Shown: positions 43,848-58,219 of the stretch, piece after piece
Numbering within the stretch: position 1 is the stretch's first letter
How the letters are laid out: every line of letters starts with the position of its first letter
NCBI GenBank assembly: GCA_022979955.1
Contig: GCA_022979955.1_3642.1
Direction: 5' to 3' (one strand)
DNA: 64,000 nt
Source: a phage
The notes under the pieces: model-generated
Databases searched by the model: none
What the model was told of the DNA's origin: nothing
Seen by the model: the letters and a program-made list of their open reading frames with translations, nothing else
Program-made: the position numbers and the translations under genes

Positions 43848-44069
43848 TTAGTAAAACTGAAGAATGTCTTTTAAAGCGAAGTCACGATATTCGCCCTTGT
43901 CTACATCGAAGGCACGCATCAACCACTGCTCTTCTTTATGATACTCTGTAGAACCAAACCATAAATTAGGCTCAGTAACGCAGCGATCTGCAACAACACC
44001 TTTCCAGTTACGGTATTTCATCCTGATCAGGACCGAGTCGCAAGGATTGAATACCTTTTTCATCCCCAT
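43848..44069 (-). CDS. hypothetical protein
   Basis: ORF track. Confidence 0.4.
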   Translation of the reverse strand: MGMKKVFNPCDSVLIRMKYRNWKGVVADRCVTEPNLWFGSTEYHKEEQWLMRAFDVDKGEYRDFALKDILQFY

Positions 44070-44613
44070 AGAAATCTCTCTCCTCAGTTTTCTTTATAAA
44101 CTCCTGCATGTAGAACTCAATAGCCTCATGCTTGGTGCACTCCGGATTAATGACAAGATTGAGATCTGATTCTGCTCGTGCAATAATCGTAGCTTTAGAG
44201 CATCTCCTCAAGAATTTTGTCATATCATCTCTGTAGTTTTTGTGGAGCGGGAAGTCGCTGTAGTCTTTCTCCAAATAGTCAGCCATCCGGCGCAACGCCT
44301 CTGATAAACTGCAATCTGTATACTCGTTACAGTATTTCATCCAGTATTTAAGCACATACCCCTCAAAGGTATTAGTGCATTGAGACAAAACACCCCTGCA
44401 ACGACCAGTCAGATGATCATGATCTAAACAAGGCTTACGAAGTGGCTCGCACAAGATCGGATCAAGACCATCCTGCTCCTCTGACAATTCTTTTCGAAAG
44501 TTGGCTATGTCCTTAGAATCTTTTAACCACCCGTTATGAACTGGGGCTTTGACAGCTTTCTTTCTTATTTTACGCTTTGCGATAATCCCTCCAGATGAGC
44601 CCTGCCTATCCAA
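44008..44613 (-). CDS. endonuclease VII-type HNH nuclease (TTG start, overlaps RuvC-like gene)
   Basis: CLDHDHLTGRCRGVLSQCTN motif; first codon read as TTG; no in-frame ATG before motif. Confidence 0.4.
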   Translation of the reverse strand: MDRQGSSGGIIAKRKIRKKAVKAPVHNGWLKDSKDIANFRKELSEEQDGLDPILCEPLRKPCLDHDHLTGRCRGVLSQCTNTFEGYVLKYWMKYCNEYTDCSLSEALRRMADYLEKDYSDFPLHKNYRDDMTKFLRRCSKATIIARAESDLNLVINPECTKHEAIEFYMQEFIKKTEERDFYGDEKGIQSLRLGPDQDEIP

Positions 44614-45194
44614 TAAGCATCTGCGAGATCGGCCTTACCTTGTACCAAATTGATCCCGTCTAGGAACCCAGGTTCAGATACTTCGCAGGCCTTAACCATC
44701 AACTTTTTATCCATTGTAACAGGTTTCTTCACAGTATGCTCTTTACCTGTCTTTTTGTCAAGCTTTTTCTTCTCCTCAAAAGCAAGTTCTTCAGGAAGAT
44801 GACTACGAGCAAACTTTTTGGCAGTTGTTGGTGTCACTGTGTGGACCTTAAACAGGCCGTCATTTTCACAATCAGCTAAGGCATCCCAAAGCATAATTTC
44901 AAGACCGTAAAACAACCCAGCCAGTTCACGTGTGGCATCCCCGCGTGATCCAAAGGAAAGCCCTTCCATAACCACGGTGTCAATGTGATGCGTGTGGATA
45001 TAATATCTGACCTGTTTGCAGATCCAGTCAATACGCTCAGCAGCTGTTGCAAAAGAAACCGTCCCTGGTTTCTTCTCTTTTGCAGATGAGCTTTGAGTTC
45101 GTAACACAACCTTGTGAACAGGCTTTCCATCGTCCCATACAACGCAAGCTGTGTGTGTCAACGACTGGTCTATGGATAATAGACGCTCTCTCAT
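44565..45194 (-). CDS. RuvC-like Holliday junction resolvase
   Basis: N-terminal LSIDQSLTHTACVVW and HIDTVVMEGLSF resemble RuvC-fold catalytic segments. Confidence 0.45.
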   Translation of the reverse strand: MRERLLSIDQSLTHTACVVWDDGKPVHKVVLRTQSSSAKEKKPGTVSFATAAERIDWICKQVRYYIHTHHIDTVVMEGLSFGSRGDATRELAGLFYGLEIMLWDALADCENDGLFKVHTVTPTTAKKFARSHLPEELAFEEKKKLDKKTGKEHTVKKPVTMDKKLMVKACEVSEPGFLDGINLVQGKADLADAYWIGRAHLEGLSQSVK

Positions 45195-57361: not shown

Positions 57362-57436
57362 GCCCTGTTAGCTTAGTGGATAAAGCAGCGGCCTTCTAAG
57401 CCGTTGACACTGGTTCGAGTCCAGTACGGGGTGCCA
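57362..57436 (+). tRNA. tRNA-Arg (anticodon UCU)
   Basis: hand-folded cloverleaf: acceptor GCCCTGT/ACGGGGT, anticodon loop CTTCTAA, T-loop TTCGAGT, 3' CCA encoded. Confidence 0.7.
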
Positions 57437-57440
57437 AATT

Positions 57441-57527
57441 GGGGAGTTATCCCGTAGAGGTAGCGGTGTAGACTGTAAATCTATTGTCATTGCGACTCGG
57501 GTGGTTCGACTCCACCACTCCCCACCA
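57441..57527 (+). tRNA. tRNA-Tyr (anticodon GUA), type II long variable arm
   Basis: acceptor GGGGAGT/ACTCCCC, anticodon loop CTGTAAA, T-arm GGTGG-TTCGACT-CCACC, CCA encoded. Confidence 0.7.
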
Positions 57528-57641
57528 AATTTATATTTTTAGATGCGTAAATAATACAGATAATGGCATTGATATTTATCGTCGTTTATACTAGTCACTA
57601 ACTGCTCGAAAATCAGTGTCATTATCAGTATAATTTATAAA

Positions 57642-57732
57642 GGAGGGTAGGGAGCAATGGTGCTCAAGCGGTCTTGAAAACCGTCCCATTGAGGATGACT
57701 CGATGATGGTTCGATTCCATTACTCTCCGCCA
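57642..57732 (+). tRNA. tRNA-Ser (anticodon UGA), type II
   Basis: acceptor GGAGGGT/ACTCTCC, anticodon loop CTTGAAA, long variable arm, T-loop TTCGATT, CCA encoded. Confidence 0.65.
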
Positions 57733-57830
57733 CATTGTTGACCTTGTAATTAAGCGAAAGCCGGAAGCAGAACCGGATTATCAAATGTTACAGTCGTCAT
57801 CGCCGACTAGCAACATGGTCAACATACTGA

Positions 57831-57927
57831 GCTAGGTAAGCCCTTTGGCAAGGGCGAGGATTTTTAATCCTGAAAATAGACGAGGTAGTCGTTGAATACA
57901 TAGGTGGTTCGATTCCACCGCCTAGCA
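57831..57927 (+). tRNA. atypical tRNA-like gene (anticodon loop TTTTTAA, nominal Lys-UUU) with about 30-nt extra arm
   Basis: acceptor GCTAGGT/GCCTAGC, D-arm GCCC-TTTGGCAA-GGGC, T-arm GGTGG-TTCGATT-CCACC; 4-bp anticodon stem; no encoded CCA. Confidence 0.35.
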
Positions 57928-57933
57928 CCTTTT

Positions 57934-58009
57934 GCTGATGTAGCACAATTGGCAGTGCAATTGATTTGTAATCAATAGGTTGCAGGTTCAAGTCCTGCCA
58001 TCAGCACCA
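57934..58009 (+). tRNA. tRNA-Thr (anticodon UGU)
   Basis: acceptor GCTGATG/CATCAGC, anticodon stem ATTGA/TCAAT with loop TTTGTAA, T-arm GCAGG-TTCAAGT-CCTGC, CCA encoded. Confidence 0.75.
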
Positions 58010-58010
58010 T

Positions 58011-58085
58011 GGCCCTGTAGCTGGAAGGTTCAAGCAAGCGACTCATAATCGCCAGATGGTGGTTCAATTCCACCCAGGGCCACCA
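58011..58085 (+). tRNA. tRNA with CAU anticodon (Met, or Ile if lysidine-modified)
   Basis: acceptor GGCCCTG/CAGGGCC, anticodon loop CTCATAA, T-arm GGTGG-TTCAATT-CCACC, CCA encoded. Confidence 0.65.
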
Positions 58086-58096
58086 AATTATAAATA

Positions 58097-58163
58097 CTCC
58101 GCGTAGCTCAGCTTGGTAGAGCGCCTGATTTGGGATCAGGAGGTCGAGTGTTCGAATCACTCC
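58097..58163 (+). tRNA. tRNA-Pro (anticodon UGG)
   Basis: acceptor CTCCGCG/CGTGGAG, anticodon stem CCTGA/TCAGG with loop TTTGGGA, T-loop TTCGAAT, CCA encoded. Confidence 0.7.
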
Positions 58164-58219
58164 GTGGAGACCACCTTTAGTTATACTTTAAACATATACA
58201 AACGAAAGGAACCTTTAAA

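Follow-up and report, generated by a model that had tools for sequence, protein, structure and literature searches.

In a 64,000-nucleotide stretch of phage DNA (NCBI GenBank assembly GCA_022979955.1, contig GCA_022979955.1_3642.1; hereafter the window), a gene for an endonuclease VII (EndoVII)-type HNH nuclease overlaps the 3' end of a gene for a RuvC-like Holliday-junction resolvase. Comparison of this junction with 80 related loci from IMG/VR (given here as L-numbers) and several annotated phage records indicates that EndoVII is most likely translated from a near-cognate AUC codon (44583..44581) behind a strong GGAGG Shine-Dalgarno (SD) sequence, probably coupled to termination of the RuvC-like gene. 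EndoVII would accordingly be a standard gene with a conserved near-cognate AUC start, a member of the known class of genes initiated at AUH (AUU, AUC or AUA). An earlier note on the window had pointed out that the EndoVII frame has no ATG before its catalytic motif, that its first canonical codon is TTG, and that it overlaps the RuvC-like gene by about 48 nt. These observations were borne out: the first in-frame ATG lies after the motif (at YWMKY), and the overlap measured from the TTG is 49 nt (44565-44613), with EndoVII in the -1 frame relative to the RuvC-like gene. The lack of an ATG is seen repeatedly in the subfamily, which marks it as more than an accident of the window genome. The coordinates of all features are collected in Table 1.

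The predicted duplex of the window GGAGG with the anti-SD sequence has a free energy of -9.8 kcal/mol, which places it in the top 1.7% of positions, and the corresponding values at all loci with ATC or ATA range from -9.3 to -10.8 kcal/mol. The same arrangement, GGAGG or GGGGG followed after 4 nt (6 nt in L020) by ATC or ATA in the EndoVII frame, recurs in about eight lineages, which are related, so that the occurrences are not fully independent; its carriers are the window, L004, L005-8, PVP-SE1, 4MG, BIS47, KNP2, L016, L018, pEp_SNUABM_01, L020, L027/28 and TH18. It is found in every compared locus in which EndoVII directly follows the RuvC-like gene. The codons flanking it and the RuvC C-terminal residues that they encode vary between lineages, and in an alignment of 16 junction sequences the only invariant columns are one G of the SD sequence and the T of the start codon. 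Isoleucine is encoded in the window by ATT (50%), ATC (37%) and ATA (13%); the absence of ATT at the start position was considered as a sign that this is not an ordinary isoleucine codon, and was not relied on because the lineages are not independent.

In other relatives, the codon aligned to the window ATC is a canonical start: ATG in L017 and L022, GTG in L021, L023-26 and POP15, TTG in Aeromonas phage 2L372X and ATG in Vibrio phage 1.170.O. The earlier note had named homologues with a standard standalone gene as grounds for refuting its reading, and the homologues of these lineages are such genes. A basic stretch follows the aligned canonical start in each sister lineage, preceded by Ala in L017 and L021-L026. 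Where the codon is ATC or ATA, in-frame stops lie 2 codons upstream in L020 and 6 codons upstream in L004, ECP2309, TH18 and L028, with no canonical start codon between the stop and the ATC/ATA in any of the five. In TH18 and L016, neither ATG nor GTG nor TTG precedes the catalytic motif or the first helix. When IMG/VR was scanned by exact pattern for close relatives with a variant start codon, the one contig retrieved was the known L004.

An open reading frame (ORF) of about 190 aa (PHROG 12410, function not assigned) lies between the RuvC-like and EndoVII genes in L021-L026 and in L086 (Certrevirus phage POP15). The lineages with this insertion are exactly those in which EndoVII starts with GTG or ATG instead of ATC/ATA, a correlation that is not absolute, since Vibrio phage 1.170.O has ATG though its EndoVII gene overlaps an RNase H-like gene.

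Selection on the N-terminus offers a separate view of where translation begins. A basic N-terminal tail of about 17-35 residues is present in all EndoVII relatives, including the Aeromonas and Vibrio phage homologues, and in the ATC/ATA loci it is located downstream of the ATC/ATA codon and upstream of every canonical candidate start. L018 and L019 differ within the tail at 9 positions, all of them third positions in the EndoVII frame, where 8 are synonymous and 1 is non-synonymous; L009 and L014 likewise show 7 synonymous differences and 1 non-synonymous difference in that frame. Read in the other two frames, the tail differences are 0-1 synonymous versus 8-9 non-synonymous (0 versus 9 for L018 and L019 in the shifted frames). 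Judged by this substitution pattern, the tail is translated and under purifying selection. It may provide extra DNA binding or bind a partner, both of which are candidate roles.

EndoVII was identified by several searches. The protein matches Pfam PF02945 (31.6 bits against a cut-off of 23.6, E=1.5e-7) and PHROG 423, 'endonuclease VII' (E=5.6e-37). The alignment with T4 gp49 that the earlier note had proposed proved to be full-length: a profile of 40 homologues matched T4 EndoVII (PDB 1e7d) over residues 9-155 of 157 with E=6.7e-15. When an AlphaFold2 (AF2) model was compared with the PDB by Foldseek, chains of T4 EndoVII were the sole matches (152-157 aligned columns, template modelling (TM) score 0.66-0.75 on T4). 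Residues D64, H65, H67, N81 and E84 (numbered from the TTG) are invariant in the 40 homologues and align with T4 D40, H41, H43, N62 and E65. On these alignments EndoVII is a complete, intact gp49-type resolvase rather than a remnant or a homing HNH enzyme; by homology its role would be that of a debranching and packaging resolvase, with junction cleavage predicted.

With T4 gp49 (PDB 1en7, 1e7d and 2qnc) it has in common the full-length alignment, the fold including the C-terminal helical domain, and the catalytic Asp-His-x-His...Asn..Glu residues. In T4 EndoVII the C-terminal helical domain is used for a domain-swapped dimer. The two proteins differ at the zinc cysteines of T4 (C23, C26, C58 and C61), which are replaced by D, L, S and T/V in the clade of the window; the four-cysteine site is a feature of gp49 itself and not of family PF02945. 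Other cysteines of EndoVII (C62 before LDHDH, C71 in GRC and C78 in SQC; 44371-44460, residues 52-81) are common without being invariant. A structural zinc site may have been lost or relocated in this clade. Further differences are the Lys/Arg-rich tail of about 17 residues, which T4 gp49 lacks, the start codon (AUC/AUA in the clade of the window versus AUG in T4 gene 49), and the overlap with a RuvC-like gene, a gene that T4 does not have.

The upstream protein matches PHROG 159, 'RuvC-like Holliday junction resolvase', with E=5.6e-39. It reaches no model threshold in Pfam, where PF02075 matches 4 of its 30 homologues (best E=1.8e-6), and single-sequence and profile searches of the PDB returned no match; its fold was therefore identified by a fold search. 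An AF2 model with a predicted local distance difference test (pLDDT) score of 92.9 was compared with the PDB by Foldseek, and the 11 best matches were all bacterial RuvC (E=3e-8 to 2e-5, target TM 0.72-0.79); the top hits were 4ld0, 7xhj, 6lw3 and 1hjr, alongside the RuvC of phage bIL67, 4ktw. Across the 30 homologues E77, D189 and D192 are invariant and D9 is conserved in at least 90%; these acidic residues, a candidate catalytic tetrad, lie in the motifs IDQS, VMEGLS and ADLADA, in the expected D...E...D..D order of the E. coli RuvC tetrad (D7, E66, D138 and D141). By its model, the upstream protein is a RuvC-fold nuclease with predicted activity. It shares the RNase H-like fold with the RuvC resolvases (E. 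coli 1hjr, T. thermophilus 4ld0, Lactococcus phage bIL67 4ktw; Pfam PF02075). Compared with bacterial RuvC it has about 50 additional residues and an insertion that forms a beta-hairpin region (139-158). The proposal of two junction-resolving nuclease folds side by side was thus upheld, by the PF02945 and T4 profile matches on one side and the RuvC fold matches on the other. In L015 (IMGVR_UViG_2974574029_000001, positions ~2430-2916) the RuvC-like gene appears to be frameshifted or truncated, the match ending at residue 154 and the frame changing, while the gene is intact in the near-identical L014; the break is either a sequencing error or a natural knockout.

The geometry of the junction fits translational coupling, because the RuvC-like stop is close to the EndoVII start and the overlaps seen in relatives resemble the classical UAAUG and AUGA. 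The window has its stop 16 nt downstream of the AUC; counted from the first base of the start to that of the stop, the distances across lineages are +16 (window), +13, +7, +1, -2 and +31, and stop and start overlap exactly in L018 and L020 (UAAUC), L019 (UAAUA), and L027 and L028 (AUAG). Coupling of the two genes, one of the possibilities named in the earlier note, is consequently plausible from their arrangement. The pair shares the same strand and a short overlap with classical coupled pairs (AUGA, UAAUG), from which it differs in that the restart codon is AUC or AUA and not AUG. With the window stop 16 nt past the start, reinitiation would require backward movement of the ribosome after termination; alternatively, the passing ribosome would unmask the SD for a new 30S subunit. 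An SD sequence upstream of the restart site raises the efficiency of reinitiation (PMC2268962).

In the mechanism that we propose, ribosomes finishing the RuvC-like protein probably unmask the SD/AUC site or reinitiate there, the initiator tRNA would start at AUC, and expression of EndoVII would be low. Initiation at AUC, AUA or AUU in E. coli reaches 1-2% of the AUG level, and green fluorescent protein started at AUC carried an N-terminal Met (bioRxiv 10.1101/063800). The weak start codon, the strong SD and coupling could together keep the output of this branch-cutting and potentially harmful nuclease small and in fixed proportion to that of its neighbour. Such low, coupled expression would be biologically sensible by analogy with phage T4, which restrains several of its nucleases translationally (PMC2988022). 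The start codon itself has several counterparts. The only confirmed non-canonical starts in E. coli are those of infC and pcnB, both AUU (bioRxiv 10.1101/063800), and the ATC start of Deinococcus DnaA was proven by N-terminal proteomics (PMC2830850). As in the window EndoVII, these genes carry AUH where orthologues carry AUG or GUG, together with a good SD. The window gene differs from infC, pcnB and dnaA in being a phage gene whose AUC start is proposed from sequence and lies inside the preceding gene, which is why coupling is likely to be involved; autoregulation by initiation factor IF3, as in infC, is not implied. T4 EndoVII, too, is reportedly under translational restraint.

The window also encodes a cluster of seven tRNAs called by ARAGORN (57362-58173, plus strand). 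One of these, tRNA(CAT) at 58011-58085, was considered as an AUH-reading initiator and rejected, as it has a paired G1-C72 and lacks the triple G:C pair in the anticodon stem; it could be an elongator Met tRNA or a lysidine-type Ile2 tRNA reading AUA. ARAGORN also reported a 99-nt 'tRNA-???' with a 4-base anticodon (57831-57929), which Rfam did not detect at its gathering score.

Several other ways of reading the EndoVII frame were weighed against initiation at AUC. The nearest of these would start at the ATT one codon upstream (44586..44584), by the same AUH mechanism and giving a protein one residue longer. The RefSeq coding sequence of rV5 begins there, and AUU is the non-canonical start codon for which E. 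coli offers confirmed cases (bioRxiv 10.1101/063800). The ATT follows the GGAGG by only 1 nt, however, and its position is occupied elsewhere by TTT, TAT, GAT, AGT, GCT, CCT, TTC, ATA, GTA or AAA whereas the next codon is always ATC/ATA, so we regard this start as improbable. The TTG at 44613, which would give a protein of 201 aa and the 49-nt overlap, is preceded by no other canonical start codon in the open frame, and TTG or GTG stands at this place in the two nearest clades (window/L004 and L005-8). Yet it has no SD (anti-SD duplex +0.3 kcal/mol), and the codon is a by-product of the RuvC codons TAT TGG within the conserved catalytic motif DAYWIG. It is not conserved and is missing outside the genus, no start codon standing at this place in PVP-SE1, BIS47, 4MG, L016, L018-20 and TH18, and in ECP2309 (cultured) and the IMG/VR contig L004 a change from GGC to GGT, synonymous in the RuvC frame, creates an in-frame TAG 3 codons past the TTG. 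Residues 1-9 of the TTG-initiated ORF, moreover, are modelled with pLDDT below 50, and taken together these data make the TTG a very unlikely start. A start further downstream, at the second TTG (44487) or at an internal ATG (as in the VB-EcoM-WM, TH18 and POP15 records), with the upstream frame left untranslated, is annotated in several GenBank records; we give it little credence, for the tail and first helix that it would discard are under purifying selection in the EndoVII frame only. TTG 44487 lies inside the model helix H33-46, which aligns with T4 EndoVII from residue 9, and has neither an annotated ribosome-binding site (RBS) in Mangalyan nor an SD-like sequence upstream in the window; the internal ATG comes after the catalytic D-H-H-N-E residues.

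The earlier note had also raised translational frameshifting, a fused resolvase system and a decaying homing endonuclease. A programmed -1 frameshift at A AAA UAA (44572..44565), with the GGAGG acting as a dnaX-like stimulator, would produce a RuvC-EndoVII fusion. Wherever the two genes are adjacent, the EndoVII frame is -1 to that of RuvC and continues open past the RuvC stop; in the window, L028 and TH18 the AAA codon could pair again after a -1 slip; and the window GGAGG lies about 15 nt upstream of the slip site. Against this, the overlap contains no X XXY YYZ heptamer of the kind the earlier note had suggested looking for, A AAA UAA is not kept in most lineages, and the last sense codon in most of them (AGG, GAG, CCG, GTA or GCA) is unable to re-pair. 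In L020 an in-frame TAA of the -1 frame, two codons before the ATC, ends 1 nt before the RuvC stop and leaves only the final codon available for slipping, and the ATC/ATA itself shares bases with the RuvC stop in L018-20 and L027-28. Folding of 121 nt around the junction gave z=0.83 relative to shuffled sequences, with no significant structure that might stimulate frameshifting or sequester an RBS; searches of 5.8 billion proteins found no protein of fusion length (maximum 201 and 230 aa); and sister lineages possess standalone EndoVII genes with canonical starts. The window sequence allows such a fusion, whereas the comparative data make a conserved mechanism unlikely, and we hold frameshifting to be highly improbable as the route to EndoVII. 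We think it just as improbable that, besides AUC-initiated EndoVII, a fraction of ribosomes slips -1 at A AAA UAA to make a two-nuclease fusion in Vequintavirus phages. The remaining proposal, that of a decaying gene or of a free-standing HNH homing endonuclease that has degenerated and no longer has its start, could appeal to the absence of an ATG at the start of the ORF and to the frequent mobility of HNH genes in phages. It is effectively refuted by the comparisons: synteny is kept across genera, the catalytic residues are invariant, the alignment with gp49 runs over the full length, C-terminal helical domain included, synonymous substitutions are far more numerous than non-synonymous ones, and the loci examined show no frame disruptions.

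Some points weigh against initiation at AUC. The spacing of 4 nt between GGAGG and the ATC is short, though still within the functional range. The window genome by itself does not separate ATT 44586..44584 from the ATC, and its EndoVII frame is open back to the TTG, so that a minor TTG-initiated form may be made there as well. In principle, the conserved Ile/Met/Val codon might encode a hydrophobic residue inside the protein, an objection countered only by the upstream stops in L020, L004, TH18, L028 and L022. Coupling is deduced from geometry, and the AUC start from comparison of sequences, in all of these phages.

The uncertainty about this start is reflected in the databases, where GenBank and RefSeq records give seven different starts for the EndoVII gene (Table 1); with several of these the N-terminal helix or the catalytic motif is lost. 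Many genomes have the gene pair annotated, and roughly 430 phage records contain the EndoVII gene. Names given to the RuvC-like gene are hypothetical, RNaseH, ribonuclease H and Holliday junction resolvase. A literature search on AUC starts in phages, on EndoVII in Vequintavirus and on rV5 and PVP-SE1, which covered the rV5 paper and other Vequintavirinae papers, found no discussion of the EndoVII AUC start and no proteomic or ribosome-profiling data for it. The novelty of the AUC start is nevertheless modest, because RefSeq already annotates non-canonical starts in rV5 (ATT) and PVP-SE1 (ATC), and the value of the case lies mainly in clean comparative evidence and widespread mis-annotation. 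If initiation at AUC/AUA is correct, coliphages and their relatives contain a natural, evolutionarily conserved near-cognate start with built-in evolutionary controls, namely sister phages with AUG or GUG at the same codon, which would suit studies of dosage control of a hazardous nuclease through the combination of a weak codon, a strong SD and coupling. Gene callers limited to ATG, GTG and TTG will go on truncating EndoVII.

Table 1. Features of the EndoVII/RuvC-like junction in the window, and EndoVII starts annotated in database records
Feature	Position	Strand	Remarks
EndoVII, proposed coding sequence	44008..44583	minus	191 aa; ATC start; overlaps RuvC-like gene by 19 nt in -1 frame
EndoVII, open frame from first canonical codon	44008..44613	minus	201 aa; TTG first; contains CLDHDHLTGRCRGVLSQCTN
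TTG, first canonical codon of EndoVII frame	44611..44613	minus	at -30; start in FFH2 and AlexBoehm records; probably not used
Shine-Dalgarno sequence GGAGG	44588..44592	minus	inside RuvC-like coding sequence, 4 nt upstream of ATC
ATT	44584..44586	minus	start in RefSeq rV5 annotation (rv5_gp093)
ATC, proposed initiation codon	44581..44583	minus	aligned with ATC/ATA or canonical starts of relatives
Lys/Arg-rich N-terminal tail AKRKIRKKAVKAPVHNG	44530..44580	minus	absent from T4 gp49
Second in-frame TTG	44485..44487	minus	start in Mangalyan, ECP2309 and SYGMH1 records
HNH / beta-beta-alpha-Me catalytic motif CLDHDHLTGRCRGVLSQCTN	44371..44430	minus	inside EndoVII frame
RuvC-like Holliday-junction resolvase gene	44565..45194	minus	209 aa; ATG start; TAA stop 44567..44565
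GTA AAA TAA, end of RuvC-like gene	44565..44573	minus	only conceivable -1 slip site (A AAA UAA); not a canonical heptamer
73-aa ORF	43848-44069	minus	PHROG 3715, function not assigned
Gene order		minus	5'-exonuclease, 111-aa ORF, RuvC-like, EndoVII, 73-aa ORF, DnaQ-like exonuclease, N6-adenine methyltransferase
Annotated ATC start			RefSeq PVP-SE1; codon homologous to window ATC
Annotated downstream GTG start			BIS47, pEp_SNUABM_01
Annotated internal ATG starts (two different)			POP15, TH18, VB-EcoM-WM, 241Ecol014PP

All genes at the locus are on the minus strand and tightly packed, and the RuvC-like and EndoVII genes would be two separate, functional nuclease genes of one operon. The order exonuclease, small ORF, RuvC-like, EndoVII, small ORF, DnaQ-like exonuclease is kept across genera. 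Over 2.1 kb around the junction, the sequence shares 99% identity with rV5-like E. coli myophages (Vequintavirus: FFH2, AlexBoehm, PDX and others), an identity by which the window is a Vequintavirus of the rV5/FFH2 type. A promoter scan of the region gave 11 matches versus 7.7±2.8 in shuffled sequence, none of them a convincing internal promoter for EndoVII, and a terminator scan of the region gave 3 matches versus 2.8±1.7. One promoter-like match, TTGACA...CATACT with 10 of 12 positions, is located inside the RuvC-like gene (44761..44733, minus strand).

The 73-aa ORF, taken from its first ATG, overlaps the 3' end of EndoVII by 62 nt, and a shorter version of 174 nt is annotated in FFH2. The C-terminal tail of EndoVII that lies inside this overlap, GDEKGIQSLRLGPDQDEIP, occurs in the Vequintavirus lineage only. 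Finally, 20 unannotated GenBank records (MG0656xx), labelled 'Campylobacter phage' with Campylobacter jejuni as host, share about 99% identity with rV5-like phages of E. coli in this region, and their host label looks doubtful.

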